Source of the DNA: Podospora anserina | Lineage: Eukaryota | Reading direction: 5' to 3' | NCBI GenBank assembly: GCA_017654855.1 | Contig: CM030332.1 | Coordinates: 6,572,001 to 6,636,000 of the forward strand | Length of the DNA: 64,000 bases | Shown: positions 3,496 to 23,628 of the stretch, piece by piece | Numbering within the stretch: position 1 is the first letter of the stretch | Layout of the letters: each line of letters starts with the position of its first letter | Notes under the pieces: generated by a model | Databases searched by the model: none | Seen by the model: only the letters and a program-made list of their open reading frames with translations | Told to the model about the DNA's origin: nothing | Made by a program: the position numbers and the translations under genes

Positions 3496-6246
3496 TCACC
3501 AATACACCACCCCCTCCTCCTCCTCCTCCTCCTCCTCCTCCTCTCTCCCATCTACACCCTCCTTCACCTCCAGCCGTCCGCCCTTCAACCTCCCCCTCTC
3601 CACAATCCACCGATCAATCCACCCCTTCATCCGTTTCCTGCTCTGTTCGCTCCCCACATTCACTGTCGGCACCACCCTCCCGATCTTCAAACCCATCACA
3701 AAAATCGCCAACTCCCTAAAGCTAGAATGCTCGCTATACGGCACCCCCAATAACACTCCCTCTTTGGTGCTTCCCCTCATGGGTATCAAATCCGCCTTGC
3801 GAAACCTACTCCTCCACGCCTTTCCATACAAGAGCTGTTCCATCGGTACGCTACCCGGGGCCATATCCGCCTTGATATTTAGGCTCTTCAAACTCGGGGG
3901 GCGGTAGTTCCACCCCGAGGGCTTGAACCCTACAATCCGGGAGAATCCAAACCGGCGATTTTCCTCGAGGTAAGAGATGAGATTCTCCTTGTTGAGGTCA
4001 GACAGCGAGGCGAGATGGACTTGCGCCTCTTGGGGGTTGGGAGTAAGGAGGGAGATGAGCTCTGGGTCGTCGAGTTGGTTCACGATTTTGAGTTTGTAAG
4101 GCGAGGCGTAGATTTTGGATTCGAGAGCGAGGGCGATGCCGACGCAGATGCGCTCTTTGCCTATGGAGTAGGTGCCGCAAAGGATGAGGAGGCGGTTTCT
4201 CTGGGAGGGTTGGGGGTTGCCTGAGAGGGCGGTGAATGCGTTCAGGGGGGCAGTGGGAGTAGGTGGTTTAGAAGGTGGTGGCGGGGGGTCATTTGTGGTG
4301 GTGGTGAAGAACTTGCTGACTGAGGTGGATGGGGCGCCGCCTTCTCGACGACGGAGGAGGGAGTCCCATTCTTTGTCGTCGTTGGAGATGAGGGCTTGGT
4401 TGAGGAGGGACGACATCTCTGCGCAGGTGGCGATGACGTCTTTTTGCGGAGGGAAGGAGTATTTTGGGTTGAGATAGGTGGTGTCTAGATAACAGACGTC
4501 AATTTTCTGGTGCTTTGTCTTGCCTGTTACGGCGTCAATTGTCTCTGGGCGGAGGTGAGGGTGCTCAAGGTGAGCTTGACAGGCTCGGAAATCCCCACAG
4601 TGCAAGATCCGATGTGTCTTGCCTCCTCCCATGGCCTTCTCAAACAAGAATAGAGAGCTACCGGGGCAATGGTTGGCGGGGATCATTGTTACTGTGACCC
4701 CCTTTGTGTGCGGGACTGGAACGGTTTTGTCAAACTCAAGCTCAACGACATATTTAGCCGCTGTCTTTAGCTGTGTCTTGACGAGTGACCCCGTTACTTT
4801 GCTGCAATAAATCGGGCCGTGAGTCCAGTTCGCCGTGAGGCCAATGTAGTGATCACTGTGAAAGTGACTGAGAAAGTAGGCCTTGCAGCCCTCCACAGCA
4901 CCATACCTGAAGGCATCAACACAAATCGAGAACCCAGGCATAATCTTGTAAAACGGACAAGTCCGCTTATACGCCGGCATTCCTCTCGAGGCGTTCTCTG
5001 CCGCAGCAGCCGCTGCCCAAGCGGTATCCTCAGCATGTCCAGACATGAGCTTAGCAAATGCTGAGCCCGAGCTGCCAGCTGAAGTCTTCTCACCGAAACT
5101 GATAGGATTCGCCTGTCCTGGTCTAGGCACAGCCGCTTTCGCAAACCTCTTTCCCACCTCAGCACCATCGATCTCTTTATTCTCTTCGAGTGCCGCTGGT
5201 GGCTTGGGCTGCGGTAGCGGCGTCGGATTCCCATCCAGACAGGCATTGACATGCTCCGAAGCCACCTGCTCTGACGCACCCGCCAAACTGCCCCCGCATA
5301 TTGGACATGCTTCCATCATCTCTTCATCAGTACGTCTGTCCATACCAAACTCTTCATAACCCTCCAACATGGCTTGCTCTTCCATGTCCCGCATAGCTTG
5401 GAGTTCTTCGCCGGTGAAATCCTCGTCGAATTCCTCTTCGCCTAACTCATCGATTGGCTCCTCTTCTGCAGGTCCTTCATTCGATGTCAAATTCGCTCCG
5501 GAGGTCTCATGTCGCAGCAGCGGCACCTTGCCCTTTACTTCTTGATCTTGATCTTCGTCATCCCTATCTGTTATCCTGGTCCCGTTGGTAAGTCTGTCGC
5601 CGGTAGTAGACTCGCAAACATTTTCTGCGGGGTCTGCAGACGCAAGGGTAGGTCTCACCCTTGATGGAGTCGTCGAGTCGTCATCATTGCTCGTTTCGTT
5701 TTCATCCCCGTCCTCGTCAGAAGAGGAGTCGTCCAAAAATGGATTTGGAACCTTCTTCTTCGCAGGTGGCTTCCTCGGCTCGTTCTGCTCCTTTTTGACT
5801 GTCGTCGACTCGGCATCTACTGAAACCGCCCTCGATTCCTCCCCACCCTCCTGCAAACCGAAACTCAACCTCCTCTTCTTAACCGACCCCCCATTCTCAT
5901 TATATCTCTCCCCTCCCCCCTCCTCCTCCACGGGCCTCTTGACGTAATCATCTGCCCCGTACATATCTTCCTCGTCCTCTTCTCCCCCCTCCCCTACCCC
6001 CCCTTCAACCCCCCCTTCAACCCCACCTTCAACCCCCCCAATAAACAAGTCCTCATCCTCCGTCTTCTTAAAATAACTCAAAATGCTCGCATTCGGCTTC
6101 GTCTTCACCTTCGGCCCTTTCGTCACAGGCTGCACCTTCATCCGCGCCCCAGGCGGTTGATTCGGTGTGATCGTTTTTTGCTTCAATTTCGGCTTCGGTG
6201 TCGCCGCCGTCTTTGGCTTGGCTTTTGATATTCTTGCGGGAGCCAT
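3496..6246 (-). CDS. PSO2: DNA interstrand cross-link repair nuclease PSO2/SNM1 (metallo-beta-lactamase/beta-CASP, with UBZ zinc finger)
   Basis: Motifs FLSHFHSDHYIGL, ANHCPGS, LHCGDFR, LDTTY, YSIGKER and VPYSEHSSF, plus UBZ-like CPICG..HVNACLD. The ATG at 6246 (MAPARISK) is preferred over the ORF-track start at 6360. Confidence 0.93.
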   Translation of the reverse strand: MAPARISKAKPKTAATPKPKLKQKTITPNQPPGARMKVQPVTKGPKVKTKPNASILSYFKKTEDEDLFIGGVEGGVEGGVEGGVGEGGEEDEEDMYGADDYVKRPVEEEGGGERYNENGGSVKKRRLSFGLQEGGEESRAVSVDAESTTVKKEQNEPRKPPAKKKVPNPFLDDSSSDEDGDENETSNDDDSTTPSRVRPTLASADPAENVCESTTGDRLTNGTRITDRDDEDQDQEVKGKVPLLRHETSGANLTSNEGPAEEEPIDELGEEEFDEDFTGEELQAMRDMEEQAMLEGYEEFGMDRRTDEEMMEACPICGGSLAGASEQVASEHVNACLDGNPTPLPQPKPPAALEENKEIDGAEVGKRFAKAAVPRPGQANPISFGEKTSAGSSGSAFAKLMSGHAEDTAWAAAAAAENASRGMPAYKRTCPFYKIMPGFSICVDAFRYGAVEGCKAYFLSHFHSDHYIGLTANWTHGPIYCSKVTGSLVKTQLKTAAKYVVELEFDKTVPVPHTKGVTVTMIPANHCPGSSLFLFEKAMGGGKTHRILHCGDFRACQAHLEHPHLRPETIDAVTGKTKHQKIDVCYLDTTYLNPKYSFPPQKDVIATCAEMSSLLNQALISNDDKEWDSLLRRREGGAPSTSVSKFFTTTTNDPPPPPSKPPTPTAPLNAFTALSGNPQPSQRNRLLILCGTYSIGKERICVGIALALESKIYASPYKLKIVNQLDDPELISLLTPNPQEAQVHLASLSDLNKENLISYLEENRRFGFSRIVGFKPSGWNYRPPSLKSLNIKADMAPGSVPMEQLLYGKAWRSRFRKADLIPMRGSTKEGVLLGVPYSEHSSFRELAIFVMGLKIGRVVPTVNVGSEQSRKRMKGWIDRWIVERGRLKGGRLEVKEGVDGREEEEEEEEEEGVVYW

Positions 6247-6977
6247 TTTGTCGACTGGGGCGTGGGGAGGGGGGAGAAGGCAAGCCGATCGGAGTTGGCA
6301 AAAGTGCAACACGTTGAGAACGCGACGAGTGTTGGAGGGGTGGCGTAAAATGTCCGCCACCGGGAGGGGAGCAAAACGCTAGGTCTGCGCGGTGTCACGT
6401 GCCCTGCACTTAGAGAACGAGCCAAGGGGGTCAGGGCAAAGGAGACATGAGAACAAAGAGAATATTGATTTGTCCTGTGCTATTGGATACAGCTGGTTCA
6501 AGAGGCGGGAAGCTCAGCTAGTCGTCCCGCCAGGGCCAAACTTTCCTCGTTCTAGACCCGAGGTGCCGAAGTAGTCTCATCCTATTCGCGTCAGAAATAG
6601 GGGCTTCTAGGTATGGCTCACAGGCCTCAAAACATTGTCGTAAGCCGATGAGAGGTGGCAGAGACTCTCAACAACTCCAACGGCACATCACTCTTTTGCA
6701 TATTCATATTTGGGACCGACGTCCGGTACGCAATTACAGACATTTGGTAGAAAAGTTCATTGGTATTGCATTTGACGCTATGGTCCCGCTTTTTAACCCC
6801 TTTATTGAATGCTGATCCGGAAAAACGCTGGCTTTTCATAACCACAGAGGTATCCCGTATCCGCTTCCGTTTCAGTAATATTGCTCTTGAGCGGTATAAT
6901 ACCCGGTGTCATCACATAGTCCTCCTTCTTGTCCTCCTTCTCGCCACCGACGGTGCTCTACACTCCCTAGAGGTACT

Positions 6978-10994: not shown

Positions 10995-12686
10995 GTTGTT
11001 ACTGTCGTAACTGTTGGTGTGGAAGACGGGGAAATGCTATTCGTGGCCCTTCGGAACTGGTACTTTTTGGTGCGCCGGAAGCGCGCCGGCAGTAGGAAGA
11101 TTGACAATACAGATATGCGATCTGGTCTAGACGAAGATGTGGGGGGGCCCGAGGCAAGCTCATGCGCCGACTTGAACGCCGTCGAGTTTTAGGAGGACGG
11201 GGGCTATTTGGGAAAACAAGACACGCACGTATTTTGTGTTGGAAAAGCCTCGGGAAGTCATGCAGAGGAATCGACGCAACGGGAAGTATGGTGGTAAACA
11301 ATTCTGCGAACTTGTTTCCGTCGTCAACGACGGTGGGAGGCGCCTGGTGATGATTGCTGCGCCTACTTCATGGGGGGTCCATTTGGAATGGCGAGCTGGC
11401 GTGCCTGAGCTTGGCAGTCAATTTGGGGGTGCAGTTTATCTGCATCTAAGTAATCATGAAACTGGTGCCGAGGGAACGATGTTAGAGGCCAAAAAAATCA
11501 ACCTGATTAGCCTCGATCAAGGCCTTCAGAAAGAATACATGTCTTGCGACACAGACAAGTCCTCGGTAAGTCTCCTCCTAGTAGATGATGAGACGATTGG
11601 ATGGTTTTGGACAAGAGGCCGAAGCTGACTTCCAACCGAGCTGCGGGGAGGTATCACTGTCCAGTCTCCAAGCTGAAGAGGACCTGAGTTTGGCGGAGTT
11701 AAGATCCCACTGTGGGCAAGGCTGGCGGATTCCTCGCTGAGGCAGGGATTCCCAGGCCAAATGAAATGTGGAGTTTGGTTGTTTCTGTAGGCGAGGCCGA
11801 GCTCGAATCCATACAATTCTGAAGAAGGCATCGTCTTTTTGTGTTCGAAAAGCAACATGATGTGAATCACAAGATTATTGTTCTGGAAGCCAGAGAGGCG
11901 ACCCCCACGAAGCACTAGAAAGCTTGGCGATGAGGGTTGCGTATCTCCTTGGCATCGCGTCTTATCGCTGGAAGCATGCACAAGGAGAACACCGGTGTTT
12001 CGAAAGGGAAGGCAGTACGGTGAGTTTGGTATTGATGTGTTGGTATATAATAGGTTTTCTACTCAAGGTTTGGAAGCAATTCTGCTGTAGAGAATGGAGC
12101 AGATGGCATGGGAGCCTTGAGCAGATCACACGAGGTCAATCGTGGAGTCGGACAGGGGTTATGTCTGGTGGCGCTCCCGCAACGATCAAACACCAAGCTT
12201 GTCACCTAACCCACGGCCAAGATATCGCCGTCTCAAAGCTAACGACCGGCCAGGGTATTCCTGAGTCTCGACGGACGTCATCTCATTTTGATTGATGAAG
12301 CGGCGGCCTTGTAGACTCCAGCTAGAGTCATGACGGCTGCCTTTTGGTGCGCGTGCATGATGCGTCGTAAATAACCTAGTGGATCTACACTTCTTCCTTG
12401 ACGAACTTCATTATTTTACCTTGGATGCCTGGAAGGTCAACCACCTACCACTTGGGAGTTCCTGCCCTTGGAAAACACACGCAACTTAGCCGTGCCTTCC
12501 TGAGGTGTGCCCTTCCCGCCCATGGTCGAACACTTCACCATGATGAAAACAAAGGTGCTCCGAGCATCGCCAAACCCTCTCCCTTCATCCAGCCAGCTGG
12601 TCTCAATCCTGGTGACAGCCATCTTACCTTTACAATAACCTCGCATCATTCATTGTTAGCATCCATACAGCCAACAACCCAACACC

Positions 12687-13746
12687 ATGACCTGCCTCAC
12701 CAACCTCTTCCCCCATCCCCTCCGTGGCCTCCTCCTCGTCACCCCCTTTCTCCTCTCCACCGGCCTCGCCAACCTAACCCTGTTCCTGCTCCCCTTCGCC
12801 AAACTCCTCCTCCCCTCCTCCTTAATCCACACCCTCTGCTCCCTCATCGCCGGCACGCTAGTCTACCGCTTCATCCAGCACATCTTCACTGCGATCAACA
12901 GCGCCGAAATCACCTTTTCCGGCGACACCCCCTTGCCAAACGAGTCCGCCATCGTCATATCAAACCACGTCGCCTGGTCAGACTTTTACCTTGTCCAAGC
13001 TGCTGCTGATAAAGCAAACATGGGAGGCCACACGAGATATTTTGCAAAGGCGGGGTTGAAGTGGGTTCCGTTCTTGGGTTAGGGATTATGGGGGATGGGT
13101 ATGCCTACTGTTACGAGGGAGTGGACGAGGGATAAGAGGGAGTTGGAGAGGGTTTTCAGGGGGGTGAAGGAAGAAGGGTGGAAGACTTGTGAGGTTTCTT
13201 TGGGGGGAAAGTTGATGATGATGAGGGGCTAATGATATGTCTGTAGGGCTGGTATCTTTTTCGGAAGGGTCACGGTTTACACCGGAGAAATACCTCCAGT
13301 CACGGCTCTGGTGCAGGCAGAATGGCAAACCCCAACCAGAGTATCTGCTCTATCCGAGGACGAGGGGATTTATTGCTACGGTGCAGCATTTGAGGAAGGC
13401 GCCGCATGTCAAGGCGGTGTATGATTTGACGTTGGCGTATCAGTGTGGGGAGGAGTTTCAAAAGGCGCCGACGATGTGGGAGACGATTGCAGTCCCGAAA
13501 TTGAGTCTGACTAGGGAGCAAGGGGGGGTGGGGTATCGATTTCATGTACATGTGAGGAGGTTCCCCATTGAGGAGTTGCCGGGGGATGCGGCCGGGCTGG
13601 CGAAGTGGTTGGAGCAGAGGTGGGTGGAAAAGGGGAGGTGGCTTGAGGCGAGGAGGTTGAGGTGGGCGAGTGTGGATGTGCTGAGGAAGACTGACGGGAT
13701 TTTTGGGGGGATGGGGAGGGTGGTGGATGAGGACTCTCGAACGTGA
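12687..13746 (+). CDS. Lysophospholipid/1-acylglycerol-3-phosphate acyltransferase (PlsC/LCLAT1-CST26-like), exons 12687-13188 and 13247-13746, with one in-frame TAG at 13080-13082
   Basis: NHVAWSD (NHxxxxD), FAKAGLKWVPFLG*GLW, REWTRD, FSEGSRFT and LLYPRTRGF motifs all lie in one spliced frame. Intron GTGAGG..GCTAAT..TAG at 13189-13246. Confidence 0.85.
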
Positions 13747-16700
13747 GCGTGGGGAATTCTTGACTGTCATGGATTATGGAAGGTGTTGGTTCACTTTTGA
13801 TTGGTGTAGCCTACAAGCTGTATCATCACAACCATTGCTACCAGTTTGCAAGATGGACTGAGACCAGCTATGAGATGAGCATGTGAACGTGGTGAATGTG
13901 ATGATGGGGTGACTTGGGGTTCAACGAAGGTATGCTGTGGTACGGTACGTTATTGATCATGACGCCCCCAACTGCGAGCCCAACGTCCTTGAGCGGGGAA
14001 AACTGTCCGGTGAGCTATGCAATGGGAGATGTGATATGTCTTTTTGGATGGCATTAGGGCCCCTAGAGACCGTTGTGATCCAGCAACTCCCGGGAAACCT
14101 TTCCGTCTTGTGGTGGCCTGAAGCCTGACTACCGTGTGTCCATGGCTTTTCATTTGCCAGGACACGAAGCTGAAGCCATCGTCAAACGGGGAAGCCCAAA
14201 GTTTACAGCAATCTTGAGACATTTATAGCATCCTGATGTCCCACAACAGCACCAAACAGCAAAGCTAACCAGATAGCTGATTCTGCTGTGAAAAAGGCCA
14301 CCGGGACCACAGCTTTGCTTGGCCCAGTAGAGGTGGCTAATAGGCAAGAAGAGTCGTCCGAGCTTGGGGTGGGCATTCGAGGTATGGTGGCACTGCAGCT
14401 TCCAATAGCTGAAGTTGAGCAAACAGGAGTGGGGGATCACGAGGGGAGGCCGTCGATGGGGATCAGATGTCTTGCTATTACCTACACAGGGTCTTCGCTT
14501 GTGGCTTGTCAGGTGTGTAACAGGTAGAGACAAGGGGAATCAAAGTTGTTTGAGTGTCTGACAAGCGTATGTGCAGCAACGCCTATCACCTTTTATCCCG
14601 CAATGATCGTCAAAGAGTGACGGTTAGTCGGGAAAGGGGTCTGGAACCTTTGGGGTTGCGACAAAGCCCAGTCCGCTTAGGTTGTCCGCGGACCAACTAC
14701 GGGGAAGAGCCCAGCGCAAGCGGGCGATCGAGATCAGGGTTGAGGGGGAAGAGGGGTAAACTACGGGGAATAGGAGTCAATTGCACCGTCACGTGGTGGT
14801 GATTATTAGTAGTTGTGGAAGTTCTGCACTTCATTTTGAGCGACATTGAAAGAGGGCTGGTGGCGCTAAGGGATATGCAGTCCTTTTGAAAAATCGACTG
14901 TTCAGATGTCTGTCGTCATATCGTCGGAGACAGGGAGGCCAAAATAGAGGAAGAGATAGGAAGAAAGATGTCGGCTGAAGTCTCGAATCTCCAACGGCTT
15001 CCGGCAGAGCAAAGCCGTGACGACGGAACCGGGTGAGGGTCACCCATCCAATGCTCATAGACAGCCGAGTCGTCCCCAAAGTTTGACACAGCCGTCTGTG
15101 CTGTGCTTGGGTAGCGACAATCCAAATTGAAAAGGCATCGAGCGGATGAGACCGTGGTGGGATGGACGAGAGGGCCCTTCGTATGCCATGTGTTGGGTTG
15201 CATTGTGTATGCAGACTCGTTCCACCGAGACACACCATCAAGCCGCCTCAATAGTATGATGGCAACGCAGCTCAATAGCCTCAGGAGGGGGACGCTGCAA
15301 CAAAACGACGATGACTCTTTGTTGCTTGCTGCGGGCACCGCTGGAAACTCCGCATCAGACTATCACCTGGCGTGCTTGCATTGCTGCAGGGTAATGCCAC
15401 CCACAGGAGCGGTAACCGACCTTTCATCCCAACAATGCACTCAACTTTGCTGCTACATCAAGCATGCTGCATCAGCAGTGATAAGTTCTTGGCTCCAGAT
15501 CGGGATGCTCTCCAACCCCTCCCTACTGGCCATTGTGCGTCCCAAGACATTCCACCCTGAACTTCTTCCATTGGCAACGCGGAGGGGTCCGTCTGTGGGC
15601 TAACTTCGAGTTCGACCCAGCTTGAGGAACGCCTATGAAGTCATCTGTGGATGCGTTTGTCTGAGGATCGAGCGATGATCGAGGCGGTCTAGATGAAGTT
15701 CTGGGGAAAAAGGAGGGGTCTTCGGGTAGCAGAGCCAATCTAGAGGAGCAAGTGACGGGAGCTTGTTCAATCGGCCGAGATATGGTTATTGCCAGCGGAA
15801 ATGGTAAAGAAACCAAGTCATGGGCTGGATAGACGTTGACTGGGTCTGATCCTGTGTCATTTGGTTGTCTCGTGCGACTAAAAGTCATGCAGGATAAAGA
15901 GAATCAGCCAACGAATGGCTTGATGGAGGGGGTGACGTTTGTTGTGATGGTAGATCTGTTTCCTCAACCGTGTCGTTTCTTTTGATCGGCCCACAGCAAT
16001 TCGGCAAACCCCAGGAGAGGGTAATCAAAAACTGAGCGATGACATGTTGAACGTTTCAAAGACACAAGAAAACGATTTCTCAGAACTCCGAGTCTGTCTG
16101 AAGTGGCCCCAATTGCTGACCACACGTGTGGTCAGTGCTCCTGTTGTGGTGGAAGATCCAGATCATGACCAAATCCACATTCGGGTTTGGGGGACTTTAC
16201 CCCGCCAAGTGCCAAACTGAATGACCACTCCAATCCGACAGCCAGACCCTGGGCATGGAAAGCATGACAGCAAAAAGGGGTTCGAGACAACCTGAAAAAA
16301 CAGCCGTGTTATGGCTATCTTGAGCTCCTCCTTCAGACCACGGCAACGGGCTGAATTGGCATTGTTGTTTTGTTTCTTGAGACTGAAGCTGCCAAATTGT
16401 AGCACTACCTTGGTTCGCGGAACACCCGCTAGCACATAATTGGTACTGATACTGCCAGGGAACATCCTGGAAGCAGCAGCTGACGCACTGCTGATTGGAC
16501 AAGACCGGCTTCTTCCCCGCTTTCAACGGTACCCCACGCATACGCAGGAAGAGCAAGAGAGCCAGTCAGTCCAACTCGCTTCGTCAGGAACTGCTTCTTT
16601 CCTATCTCTTGGAAAGAAGATGGCAAGCAAAGCCGGGGACAAACATTCTGGATGGGGATAATCTGATAGAATTTCCTGAGCCACAGATTGAAGTGAGAAG

Positions 16701-17735: not shown

Positions 17736-20700
17736 ATGGAAGAAGAGCCTACCCCACCCAACATGCTGGCCCCGCCGGCCTTGAACTCGCTCCGGGCCGG
17801 CGGCATGGAGAGATCGTTCAGCGAGAACATTCGTGAGGAGAGAGAGGAGCTCCGAGAGGCTGCCGAGCAGACTCTCAATGTCCTTCTGGATCTTAACCTC
17901 AATGGGACGATTCGATGGGTGAGCCCATCCTGGGTTGATGTGATTGGGACACCACCAGAATCCGTCATTGGAACACCAATTGCCGACCTTGTTGTCAGCG
18001 AAGACCCGACTATCTTCTCCAAGGTTGTGCAGGACATGAAAGACGATGACCGGCGCAGCCAGTTTATACGATTTGCTGTCAAGCTGGGGCCCATGGCAAA
18101 GCTTTACCCGGTCGAGATGATTGGAGAGCCTGCTGAGGAAATGCCCCTCCCTACTGTTGAGCTAGAGGCCCAGGGTATCATGGTGTATAGTGGTGCGTCT
18201 GAGGGAGAAAGCCATGTGAGTTGCATCAGATGAATGCCATTTCTCGACCCAGGCGCTAATGCTTTCTCTTCAGAGCATGTGGATGATCAGACCCTGGGTA
18301 GCCCCACGAGAGATCAAGATTGATTTACCACCGGTTATCGTTGATTCTCTCGGGTCCGGCGCTGAAGTGTTGGCGAGTTACCTGACCCAACTCGCAGAAT
18401 CCGGACTTGACGATCCAGCCCTCCATCCCCCGCCCCTTCCGGTTCTTTGCCGAATTTGCGAACGTCAGATTTCCCCGTGGTGGTTTGAGAAGCACACAGA
18501 CCTCTGCTTGCAGGAACATCGAGCTGAGATGGATGTTCAGATGGCGCAAGAAAATCTGACTGAGCACAGGAGCGCGATTGTCAAGGTTCTCGACGCGTTA
18601 GGAGACACTCGACGAAGTCGCTCCTTGGTAGGAGAGCCATCGCCGCCATTGGCTGCTGAATACAAAGGGTTGCTTATTAGGGCGCCTACCTCGGCTACTT
18701 CTTCCCCGGGCACATCATCGCCAATCCTTGGCGCAGGTCGGTCGCGAGAACGATCGTCTGGATTTGGACATGCGCGAGCGCGGTCCTTCGCCGTGCGCAG
18801 GCCGCAGGTCCGGATTGTTGAGCTCTTACTGGATCTTTGCGATACAGCCATTGAAATCAGCACGCCGGCCATCAAGGAGTCGCCCCAGCCAGACGGTGAA
18901 ATTCGCACGCAGTCCCCTCAGTCGGAAGGACATATCACGCAGGTTTTACAGTGGGAGACCCCAGGAACCAACACACTGGAACAGGAGCAGGGGCTTGCCC
19001 TGCTTTGCAGTGATACAGAAAAAGTAGCTCGGGACAAGGTGGAGGCCGTATTCCGTCACCGACGAATCTTGGAGTATGCCGAGCGAATTCGCGTCGAGTT
19101 TGCCATTATCGTTCAAAACTGTATCGATAAAGCCTTGCGTAGTGCGGCTAGGATTGCCTCTGGACATCCCCTCAGTGACACGACCGAGGATGAAGACGAG
19201 GCTGCCGTCATTGCGCCATCTCGGGGGGAGGAGGATATCTTTGTGGGAAGTTTTGATGAGCACCCTTCTGGTTTGGCTTTGGCATTAGAAAATGCAGATA
19301 TTGATGAAGATCCTGAAAGACGGCGTTCGTCTGCTGTCCACTCTACGAGATCAAGCAGTCCCCGAGAGTGCCCAACGCCGCGATCTCACCGAGGTGCCAC
19401 AGCCAACTTTTCGGGTGCGAATCAGTCTCGACGAGAATCAATGATTTTTGAGAGCGATGCGGGTGCGGACAGCGATGGAAGCTTGCGATCAGCATCCGTG
19501 GCGTCAAGGCCGCCGCCGCGGACAGACTCGCCCATGTCCGAGTTCAGTGATCTCCGCCGGCAGGCAAGTTCGCGACAACATCATCGCAGAAGCCTGATTC
19601 TCCCCGGAGCCGTGTCTCCGCGGCGGCAGGAATCGCCATCACGTATGGGTCCGCCGTCGTCCCCCCTTCGGATTCACAAGCCCCGTAGCTTTCCCTTCTC
19701 CTCAGACGCTCTTGTGTCTCCTGAGGCGTCCCCGTTGCTCACACATAGCGAGTTCACTTCGCCGAGCGTTCCCCATCATGTTCACCACAGAAGACAATCC
19801 TCGGCTGCTGTCTCGGCATCCACCGGGGACTTGCCCCTGAGCATCAAACCGCCTGTATCGCCACGACTAGCGCCTCAAGCCAAGGCCGTGCCTCCGTCGA
19901 TCAGAGACTTCGAGATCATCAAGCCCATCAGCAAAGGCGCGTTTGGTAGCGTCTATTTGTCCAAAAAGAAGTCGACAGGCGAGTACTTTGCCATCAAAGT
20001 ACTCAAGAAAGCTGACATGGTCGCCAAGAATCAGGTCACCAACGTTAAAGCGGAACGGGCCATCATGATGTGGCAAGGTGAAAGCGACTTTGTTGCCAAG
20101 CTATACTGGACCTTTTCGAGCAAAGACTACCTGTACCTCGTAATGGAGTACCTCAACGGAGGGGATTGTGCGGCACTCATCAAGATTCTGGGCGGTCTAT
20201 CTGAGGAATGGGCAAAGAAGTATCTGGGCGAGGTTGTTCTCGGTGTTGAGCACTTGCACAGCCGCGGAATCGTTCACCGAGATCTCAAGCCTGATAACCT
20301 GCTGATTGATCAGAAGGGCCACTTGAAGTTGACCGACTTCGGTCTTTCACGGATGGGTTTGATTGGTAGGCAGAAGCGGGCACTGAACAGCGGCACTGAT
20401 GCTGCCCCCGACTTGCTCAAGCAAGGACCGTTCGCTCGGTCGACATCCATCGCATCATCCAGGTCGACTTCCATGGACCTTCAAGGCCGCAGCCACTCGC
20501 CTGGTTCCACGCCGCAAATGACTCCTAGCGATTGCGCCGTGAGCCTAGGACCACCCTCCTACTTCAACCTTGGCACATTGTCGCAGGAACCACGTCGTGT
20601 GTCCACTCAGCGCAGCGACAGTGGCGGTAGTGAAGCACTGTCGCAGATGATTGGGAATCTATCTTTGGCTGATCCTCAAGTGAGCTACTCATCATCGGCC

Positions 20701-23628
20701 ATTCTTTCCCCTGCCGAGGGGAGTGAAGTTGAGCCTGGCGCATCCCCAGACTTTGCCTCCCTTTCCCACGTCACTTCACACAACGGTCTCGAGTCCCACA
20801 GGGGCACTCCTCCGCAGCCATCAATGGCGCCGCCAAATTGGGCTCTGTTTGACCCCGAAGATACCACCCGCCGCTTCGTTGGCACTCCGGATTATCTTGC
20901 TCCGGAAACAATCAAAGGCGAACCTCAAGACGAAACCAGTGATTGGTGGTCCGTTGGATGCATCTTGTACGAGTTCCTCTACGGCATCCCGCCGTTCCAC
21001 GCCAGTGAGGCCGAGCAGGTATTTGAGAACATTCTTGCCCGGAGAATGACGTTTCCTGAGATGGACCCAGAGATATCACCCGAGGCCAAAGATATCATCA
21101 ACAAGCTGCTTTGTATGGATCCCAGCCAACGCCTGGGTGCTAACAAGGACGATAAGTTCCAGAGCGGAGGCGAGGAAATCCGTCATCATCCTTGGTTCAA
21201 TGGTGTGAACTGGGACACGTTGCTTCAGGATGAGGCCGAGTTTGTGCCCCAGCCGGAAGACCCTGAGGATACCGAGTACTTTGACTCCCGTGGCGCCACG
21301 CTCCAGTCTTTTGTGGAAGAGATGGAGGATCAGAGCTCGCCCCCTCCCGGTGGCCCCCTTTCCGACAATTTTGACCGACCGCACGATGCCCTGTCTCGGG
21401 TTAGATCCCAGGTCAACTCCATGAAGCGTGGTTTGATGCCTCTGCACATTCCTCCGCACGTTAGAGACCACAAGAGTAGCCGGAGGCTCAGTGAACCTGT
21501 GGCCGCTGATGACTTTGGGAATTTCACTTTCAAGAACCTGCCTGTTCTCGAAAAGGCGAACAAGGATGTGATCCAGAAACTGCGCGCAGAAGCTCTCGCG
21601 GGCTCAAACAAACCCATCAGTCCCGGCGGAGCGAGCAACAACAGCATTACTTCTACCGGAACAGGCCTTGAGGGTAGTCCCATCATTGCCAATCCGGTTC
21701 AGCGGACGCTATCCAATGCCAAAGCTACTCAACGGCCCCAGTCGCCCTCTGGTCTGAGCCACGCCAACTCGTCTCCCAGTCGTGCTTCCCAGCCTTCGTC
21801 GCCCCTATTGGTCTCTTTTGTGGCAGGCCAAGGCGAGAATAGACGCAAGGCCTCTGCGAACTCGAATACATCGCAGCCCTCAACAACGACAAGTTCACTG
21901 CAGCCGGGAAATTTCTTCGATCTACCCCGCGTTCCGCCTAGTCTGCAGAAAGCGGCCACTAGTGTTGCTGCTTCACCGTCCCCGGTGAAAAGTCGTGGGG
22001 GAGGGTTGCCTCCGCTGCCGCTCTCGTCACCGTCAAAGCCAATGCCGAATCACCTGATGTCTACTCCCAGGCACAGCGGAAGCTCCGTCGGCGGACGTTC
22101 CCGTTCGTTGACGGTGGGCTCGCAAGAAGGTAGCCCGGTGGCAGCAGATCTCTTCTTGGCGGCTGCTCATAAGAATCGTCGCAGCCAAGTATTTGACATG
22201 TCACCATCATCCTCGGACAACGAGGGCGACAAGGCCAATGCGCTGCTCAGAGTTCAACGACGGCGTCAAAGCTCGAGACGCATGTCATATATCGCGGCAA
22301 ATGAGGGCATTCCTATTTTCCGTGCCCTCGACGTTTTGATATGCGATGATCATCCCATCTCCCGCATGGTGATGGAAAAACTCCTGGAGAAGCTGCGGTG
22401 CCGTACCGTTGCCGTATCAACAGGTCCTGAGGCCATTCGATACGCCATGAGCGACATCAAGTTCGACATCATTTTCCTGGAGTTTAGGTTGCCGCAGATT
22501 TCAGGTTGGGACGTTGCCCGTATGATACGCGAGACCAAGCATGCAAACACCCATACTCCCATTGTTGCGATCACAGCCTACTTGAAGGATCTGAACGGGC
22601 CTTATCTCTTTGACTCGCTCATCGAGAAACCGATCAGCTCATCAAAGCTAACCGAGGTTCTTTGTTCGCTTTGTCAGTGGAAAGCGCCCATGCCCGGCCA
22701 GCTGGTCAACACAACTCAAACATCGTTGCCGCTGCCGCATCCTGTTCCTTCGAGTCTCCGACAACAGGAAACCTTTCGACTTGAGGACAGCCCCACCTCT
22801 AATTCGTCTGGATATGCCAATCGTTCGAGCAGCAGCTTCCGGGAGGACTCAATCGCATCTAGTCTATATGGAGACTCGGAGTCCGTCATGACAGACGACA
22901 TTCCGGTTCTGATCAGCAGGAAAGCCACTGGTGACTGGGAAGAGGGCGGCGGACTTGGCATCTCAGGTGCCGAGGAGATATTGTCGGGCCAAGGCGAGCC
23001 GATGAGGTCTCCCACGCTCCCTCATCTGGTGACTCAGCAATCAGCACCAAGCCAGATGGAACACTCGCCGCTCCAAAAGAAAGGACCGATGCCTCAGCGT
23101 TCCTTTGAGAAGTTAAAGGCGAGGCGCGAGTCGCTCGAAAAACGGAGGTTCGAGGGCAATGTTGATTCGGCTGATGACGAAGACGACGAGTTGGATGCGG
23201 GGGGGACTGGCCGTACCCCGGCCTCTCCATCTGCTAAACACTCGCGCGCTAAGCAACAGCTGCCCTCGTCCAAGCTTGGCATCGAGATGATGAGGGCAAA
23301 CAGCCACGACAGCATGCTAGAGCCTCAGACACAAGTAGCCACGCCGAATCATGAAGGTCAGCTTGAATTCCCCGAGAGTATCGGGCCGGAGATTGCCCCA
23401 ACTCCTATCACGCCGCTTTCCAAGGTGGTGGAGGATCTCAACGAGGGAGTAGAGACGCCACCGGCTGCTGAGGGAGAAAGCGTCGACAAGGCAGATATCG
23501 ACGTAGATGAGACTCCCCGTCCCAATTCGACCTTGGCATTCATGGCGTCCATTGACGAAGACCCGACTCCTCGCCCCCCTGCGCGGGTAACCGATAGAGA
23601 CAACGTCTTGCCTTTTTCTGGGATTTAA
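17736..23628 (+). CDS. RIM15: RIM15/Cek1 serine-threonine kinase (PAS, zinc finger, split AGC kinase, receiver domain); exons 17736-18215, 18274-23628
   Basis: N-terminal PAS, CRICERQI..FEKHTDLC, IKPISKGAFGSVYL, HRDLKPDN, DFGLS, a long insert, FVGTPDYLAPE, and a C-terminal REC domain (VLICDDHP). Confidence 0.95.

Follow-up and report, generated by a model that had tools for sequence, protein, structure and literature searches.

An in-frame TAG at an invariant tryptophan codon of a Podospora anserina acyltransferase gene: a candidate for restorative A-to-I editing

An acyltransferase gene of Podospora anserina, located in the 64,000-nucleotide stretch of DNA analysed here (contig CM030332.1 of assembly GCA_017654855.1; hereafter the window), is interrupted by one in-frame TAG at a codon that specifies Trp in all aligned homologs from outside the family Podosporaceae. 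We propose that this TAG is a candidate for restorative (premature-stop-correcting) A-to-I editing of the mRNA, which would convert UAG to UGG and thereby gate production of the full-length acyltransferase. Judged from sequence evidence, this explanation is probably correct. We also lean, by a smaller degree of confidence, towards a family-wide form of the proposal, according to which Podosporaceae would have placed their sole CST26/LCLAT-type enzyme behind an RNA-editing switch through an ancestral TGG-to-TAG change, so that it would be made only in fruiting bodies, with a burst of change on the stem of the clade (0.73 changes per site) followed by purifying selection. We infer the editing event, its stage and the role of the enzyme, including the terms 'sexual-stage' and 'lipid remodelling', from the observations below.

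Gene structure and encoded protein

The acyltransferase gene comprises two exons on the forward strand (Table 1). When joined by script, they give a coding sequence of 1002 nt, in which the TAG at codon 132 is the single internal stop and no other lesion is present, as expected from an earlier note on this DNA that had described an otherwise intact acyltransferase with a TAG at a conserved Trp. The local reading is ...ttg ggt TAG gga tta tgg..., which translates as LKWVPFLG, the stop and then GLWGMGMPTVTREWTRDKRELERVF; the reading frame is thus interrupted within the FLGWGLW block, where the Trp codon is replaced by TAG. The frame had also been described as running through a normal intron into the FSEGSRF and LYPR motifs, and both were found in exon 2.

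With TAG read as Trp, exon 1 matched PF01553 (Acyltransferase) over residues 75-153 (E 5.1e-09, 36.5 bits versus a cut-off of 23), and exon 2 matched PF16076 (Acyltransf_C) with an E-value of 2.6e-11 (43.7 bits versus a cut-off of 26.5). By both Pfam cut-offs, the protein called PlsC-type in the earlier note is PlsC/AGPAT-type with a C-terminal PF16076 domain. Residues N93, H94, V95, W97 and D99 of motif I are invariant in an alignment of ten sequences. The homologs carry the database label '1-acyl-sn-glycerol-3-phosphate acyltransferase', and we take the PF01553 and PF16076 pair to indicate here a CST26/AGPAT3-5/LCLAT-like lysophospholipid acyltransferase. By descent, the gene is a member of the AGPAT/LPLAT acyltransferase family, although it can encode the enzyme only through recoding of the stop. 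It appears to be the only CST26/AGPAT3-5/LCLAT-like gene of P. anserina. A sequence search for solved structures returned no matches.

Table 1. Features of the acyltransferase locus and of the transcript-like contigs placed on it (positions counted from the first nucleotide of the window)
Feature	Position	Strand	Remarks
Transcript-like contig span, run X7	12097-13925	+	
Transcript-like contig spans, run X9	12254-13189 and 13247-13720	+	
Transcript-like contig span, run X8	12344-13846	+	smallest across the gene
Exon 1	12687-13188	+	ATG at 12687; residues 1-167 and first base of codon 168
Motif I, NHVAWSD (HxxxxD catalytic motif)	12963-12983	+	residues 93-99; upstream of TAG
Predicted RNA hairpin	13060-13109	+	stems 13060-13077 and 13089-13109; 11-nt loop 13078-13088 containing A13081
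In-frame TAG, codon 132	13080-13082	+	invariant Trp (TGG) in homologs; A-to-I editing is proposed at A13081 (UAG to UIG, decoded as UGG)
Intron	13189-13246	+	58 nt, GT..AG, phase 1; spliced contig in run X9
Exon 2	13247-13746	+	TGA stop at 13744-13746; motif III and Acyltransf_C domain
Motif III, FSEGSRF (xEGxR)	13258-13278	+	residues 172-178; E and R nearly invariant in alignment
LLYPRTRGF	13345-13371	+	exon 2, downstream of TAG

Tryptophan at codon 132 in homologous proteins

A total of 251 homologs were fetched, and codon 132 was covered by the alignment in 245 of them. Trp occupies this position, within the block VPFLGWGLWxMGMP, in all 235 sequences that do not come from Podosporaceae, and the ten Podosporaceae models have no residue for it; an apparent Trp in four of these models arose because the aligner had slid the Trp of LKW into the column. 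A scan of metagenomes revealed six loci, all of them conventional W-type homologs whose exon 2 shares 62-70% identity with that of the window, with no Podosporaceae locus among them. The five loci that cover exon 1 have Trp at the stop position, and the intron position is common to the Podospora gene and the metagenome homologs. The earlier note gave Gly-Trp as typical of such enzymes at this point, and this agrees with the Trp of every aligned non-Podosporaceae homolog and of every metagenomic locus that covers exon 1.

Public gene models of Podosporaceae

The best database match of the gene is a cluster of Podospora proteins, and the locus tags of the sister species end in _117905. The public model of P. 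anserina S mat+ (P0127, 332 aa) corresponds letter for letter to the spliced protein of the window without the TAG codon. The same codon is gapped in all ten Podosporaceae models, six from Podospora species (P. anserina, P. comata, P. bellae-mahoneyi, P. pseudopauciseta, P. pseudoanserina and P. pseudocomata) and four from other genera (Triangularia verruculosa, T. setosa, Cercophora samala and Apiosordaria backusii). Exactly one codon, the TAG, is cut from the models of P. anserina and P. comata, and 18 nt encoding VPFLG and the stop are cut from those of the remaining four Podospora species (327 aa); in the window sequence these 18 nt have GT first and AG last. The models of T. verruculosa, T. 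setosa and A. backusii have gaps of 13-17 codons which start exactly after VPFLG, and the C. samala model has a 27-codon gap around the stop site.

Introns of 3 nt or 18 nt are far smaller than fungal introns, and these cuts are therefore not real introns. It had been anticipated that gene predictors might use a GT donor at 13078, but the public models instead cut the TAG alone or 18 nt. Contig open reading frames (ORFs) from P. anserina (P0129, 131 aa) and P. comata (P0132) terminate at VPFLG. Because the evidence from the other genera consists of gaps in gene models and not of DNA, a lesion at codon 132 is strongly implied for these genera, and we infer that the stop is also TAG outside the P. 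anserina complex. The ten public models, patched with impossible 3-nt and 18-nt 'introns' or with deletions of a conserved motif, represent a practical annotation problem in their own right.

Phylogeny, constraint and copy number

The ten Podosporaceae sequences group as one clade (SH-aLRT 100) in a phylogeny of 39 proteins; the stem of this clade is long (0.73 changes per site) and its inner branches are short (0.00-0.11). The four proteins from other genera share identities of 0.79-0.86 with P. anserina upstream of the stop and 0.86-0.93 downstream of it. No second lesion was found in the models of the ten species, nor any further gaps. A neutral model scaled to the clade sum of 0.60 amino-acid changes per site, which corresponds to approximately 0.28 changes per nucleotide site, predicts that about 11 further nonsense mutations should have arisen, and the probability of observing none is roughly 1e-5. 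This model ignores indels, and counting them would strengthen the case for constraint. The lack of new stops where about 11 are expected therefore indicates that the part beyond the TAG is translated, now or throughout the history of the family. The lesion appears to be old and to have been retained across Podosporaceae. The earlier note had suggested looking in relatives for conservation of the stop together with constraint on both of its sides, and both were seen at the level of protein models, with the codon gapped in 10/10 and identities of 0.79-0.93.

Within Podospora, the P. comata protein (P0123) and that of P. anserina differ at 11 of the 131 residues before the stop and at only 2 of the 201 after it, and the proteins of the remaining four sister species match P. 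anserina almost completely over the full length.

Podosporaceae proteins share 48% identity upstream of the stop and 66% downstream with the ortholog from Diplogelasinospora. A search with this conventional Diplogelasinospora protein retrieved orthologs that share 65-76% identity with it from further families of the Sordariales (Echria, Lasiosphaeria, Bombardia, 'Podospora' didyma, Rhypophila, Immersiella, Schizothecium and Naviculisporaceae). The best 120 of its 589 matches included no copy of the conventional W type from Triangularia, Apiosordaria or the P. anserina complex. The simplest reading of these sequence data is that the TAG gene represents a fast-evolved ortholog and the sole copy of its subfamily in Podosporaceae. 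The alternative that it is an old paralog kept only in this family is not favoured, since a tree in which the TAG clade is constrained to group with the other Sordariales was not rejected by the AU test and was in fact better by 6.0 lnL units (p-AU 0.60), and since no second copy was seen among the same best 120 matches.

Proteins from Neurospora, Sordaria and Chaetomiaceae were absent from the best 120 matches of either homolog search, in which many other Sordariomycetes were present. In these fungi the gene may have been lost, may be very divergent, or may also be broken and unannotated.

Base at position 13081 and splicing in transcript-like contigs

The stretch is present in 19 of the 22 listed sequencing runs, which were available as contigs only, and those of four runs in the public domain (X4, X7, X8 and X9) were placed on positions 12000-14500 of the window. 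The kinds of these runs were guessed, with the exception of X9, which includes a spliced form; the runs carry no stage label, and contigs drop minor variants. At position 13081, contigs of all four unstaged runs have A and no other letter, as far as contigs, which drop minor variants, can represent the RNA. An assembly error at 13081, which the earlier note had wished to see checked, is ruled out by the same base.

The contigs of run X9 contain a joint from 13188 to 13247 (58 nt skipped, GT..AG) at a depth of 10.8 together with an unspliced contig at a depth of 25.6, and those of X4, X7 and X8 contain the intron-retaining form only. Retention of the intron brings the frame to an end at a TAA (13230-13232). 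Joints starting at 13077 or 13078 were found in none of the four runs, and 13188 to 13247 was the sole joint seen. The donor at 13189 is thus real, and the TAG, through which the contigs run unbroken, is retained in the RNA. Use of this donor rather than of the one at 13078, which had been named earlier as a point to verify, is thus established for X9.

A spliced ORF of 195 aa (P0130), present on four Logan contigs, begins at a Met downstream of the stop (MPTVTREW). Searches in the size ranges of 294-2000 aa and 91-293 aa, as well as the 12 members of the cluster, revealed no ORF of the gene with Trp at codon 132 and at least 90% identity, and a near-length protein search for contig ORFs from other Podosporaceae or for edited (W) forms returned nothing above 63% identity. 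These negative results weigh little against editing because the kinds and stages of the runs are not given and contigs drop minor variants.

In the 5' leader, the window has C at 12511, where contigs of all four runs have T, and X9 also has T at 12442. These are the only differences between the contigs and the window in the placed region, and they could reflect a strain or reference difference or a change in the RNA.

Sequence and structural context of A13081

The editing preferences reported for Fusarium graminearum are a strong one for U at position -1, a pyrimidine (C or U) at -2, G at +2 and a purine (A or G) at +1, +3 and +4, with over 62% of the edited sites in predicted hairpin loops of the ±30-nt fold (PMC9600606). 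The accessible part of PMC11156358 likewise describes a preference for U at -1 and for hairpin loops, as well as UAG-to-UGG correction of premature stops. From -2 to +4, the context of A13081 is UUAGGGA (TTAGGGA in DNA), which matches this F. graminearum consensus at 6/6 positions and agrees with the earlier remark that editing favours a UAG context. Among the 327 A residues of the interval 12344-13846, just two (13081 and 13513) have all six preferred neighbours. Over the whole window, the complete set surrounds 14 of 626 TAG triplets on one strand and 16 of 594 on the other.

Folding predicted a hairpin around the stop with a minimum free energy of -17.7 kcal/mol (z -1.74; 14 of 200 shuffles were as stable). 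A13081 fell within the same 11-nt loop with flanks of 20, 30, 40, 50, 75 and 100 nt, and its probability of being unpaired was 0.76-0.87. In a control, hairpin loops also held 19 of the 43 UA sites of the transcript. Because of this high background and the only mild z-score, the predicted structure adds little to the proposal and the primary context adds more.

The second A with a full set of preferred neighbours, A13513 (CUAGGGA), is located in a 6-nt hairpin loop, and its editing would turn AGG (Arg, in ...SLTREQGG...) into GGG (Gly).

Proposed mechanism

ADAT-dependent A-to-I mRNA editing acts in the development of fruiting bodies in Fusarium, Neurospora and Sordaria. We propose that the TAG arose by mutation of the invariant Trp codon (TGG) in the last ancestor shared by all Podosporaceae. 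Unedited mRNA would then give a 131-residue stub that keeps motif I (HxxxxD) and has none of motifs II-IV or the C-terminal domain. Deamination of A13081 by the fungal ADAT (TAD2/TAD3)-dependent editing activity would convert UAG to UIG, which is read as UGG, so that Trp132 would be restored and the full enzyme of 333 residues would be produced chiefly or exclusively at sites of active editing, of which perithecia are the most probable. The presence of A at 13081 in every contig represents the main evidence against this explanation.

The ADAT genes are described in the available text of a preprint as differentially expressed during sexual development of P. anserina (bioRxiv 10.1101/2024.12.09.627484). 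In the papers searched, we found no report of site-level A-to-I editing in P. anserina, and no paper naming the gene as Pa_1_17905, although supplementary tables may list it or its orthologs. No paper was found that links A-to-I editing, an acyltransferase and a premature stop in perithecia of ascomycetes. The word 'editing' is absent from the P. anserina re-annotation paper (PMC9801653), and the available portions of PMC6660238 and PMC9949647 contain nothing relevant to editing of this gene.

Alternative explanations

Translational readthrough would mean that UAG is occasionally read by a near-cognate tRNA, giving a small amount of full-length enzyme at all stages from an unchanged RNA. It is consistent with the constraint on both sides of the stop, with transcript-like contigs in 4/4 runs and with the unedited state of all RNA contigs seen. 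However, near-cognate readthrough of UAG inserts mostly Gln, Tyr or Lys and not Trp, the residue that is invariant in 235/235 homologs, and a purine after the stop, as in UAG-G here, generally favours termination. Readthrough also leaves unexplained why the stop is a one-transition derivative of TGG in a 6/6 editing context, and we consider it unlikely.

A second possibility is that the stop is never recoded and the gene functions in pieces, through either the 131-residue N-terminal stub or a C-terminal product whose translation begins within the frame (at M136 or M138, for instance), or else that it acts as a regulatory RNA. Contig ORFs were indeed called for both halves (P0129 and P0130), and the downstream part is the better conserved of the two (0.86-0.93 versus 0.79-0.86). 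On the other hand, each piece would be deprived of essential motifs, as motif I lies upstream of the stop and motif III and PF16076 lie downstream, and both halves are conserved with the frame kept across the stop. We know of no split enzyme in this acyltransferase family, and this explanation appears quite improbable.

The gene could also be a dead or dying unitary pseudogene in which the stop was merely inherited and papered over by gene predictors. The intact catalytic motifs argue against decay, as do the absence of a second lesion in the ten models, the short inner branches and the roughly 11 extra nonsense mutations that neutrality would have produced. These observations make a pseudogene very unlikely in spite of several features that would suit it, namely the very long stem branch of the Podosporaceae clade, intron retention in the contigs of 3/4 runs, the lack of edited RNA in the contigs of the four runs and the 11 changes in the first 131 residues of P. 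comata.

Removal of the stop by alternative splicing, either from the 13078 donor to the 13246 acceptor, which would preserve the frame, or through a micro-intron such as the 18-nt GT...AG segment cut from four public models, is highly improbable given that no joint at 13077 or 13078 occurs in the four runs, that fungal introns are much longer than 3 or 18 nt, and that the longer splice would remove the conserved GLWxMGMPxVxRxWxRD block, as the earlier note had foreseen for its R-x-W-x-x-D segment.

Comparison with known systems

Restorative editing, the explanation that we prefer, has precedents in F. graminearum, where 71 'PSC pseudogenes' are described whose premature UAG is corrected to UGG in perithecia; conserved domains are present in 28, hypothetical proteins are encoded by 43, the stops are generally conserved in evolution, and the transcripts of 16 are abundant at all stages (PMC10776026, in its available text). 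The accessible descriptions of such Fusarium targets (PUK1, AMD1, FgRID, FgAMA1 and the 71 pseudogenes; PMC10776026, PMC11156358, PMC4817773) resemble the Podospora gene in having UAG at an ancestral Trp in an intact and constrained gene, conservation of the stop among relatives, U at -1 with purines downstream, a hairpin loop, and gene models broken or patched by annotators. In contrast to these targets, the Podospora (Sordariales) case is known from sequence and its editing is only proposed. Its product would be a conserved metabolic enzyme, apparently the sole copy of its subfamily, unlike the 43 of 71 Fusarium cases that are described as hypothetical proteins, and compared with the Fusarium targets its stop seems to be shared by an entire family (at least four genera).

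A conserved premature UAG is also present in CHE1 of F. graminearum, where it requires A-to-I editing, which takes place in vegetative hyphae under oxidative stress (PMC11169179, available text). Because CHE1 is edited in hyphae, the term 'sexual-stage' is an assumption for the Podospora gene.

If editing is confirmed, A13081 would be the first defined A-to-I recoding site of P. anserina, with a core membrane-lipid enzyme as its product. The proposal, if true, would mean that restorative editing has turned a core membrane-lipid enzyme into one used for reproduction only, and that a premature stop can persist across several genera or a whole fungal family. The measurable activity of such an enzyme would suit tests of the trade-off between survival and reproduction that has been proposed for Fusarium, and P. 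anserina is a century-old genetic model in which crosses and gene replacement are easy. If editing is absent, the gene would still represent an unexplained conserved and constrained ORF with an internal stop.

Among the AGPAT/LPLAT relatives with Acyltransf_C, which we take to include human AGPAT3-5 and LCLAT1 and yeast CST26/PSI1, the Podospora protein shares the PF01553 and PF16076 domains, the NHxxxxD and FxEGxR motifs and a hydrophobic N-terminus. It differs from them in the interruption of its ORF at the invariant Trp and in the strong divergence of the Podosporaceae clade.

Neighbouring reading frames

Two long ORFs in the neighbourhood of the acyltransferase gene look ordinary. The one at 3496-6378 on the reverse strand encodes an SNM1/PSO2-type DNA-repair metallo-beta-lactamase (PF07522, PF12706), and the one at 18220-23628 on the forward strand encodes a large protein kinase that also carries a response-regulator receiver domain (PF00069, PF00072).
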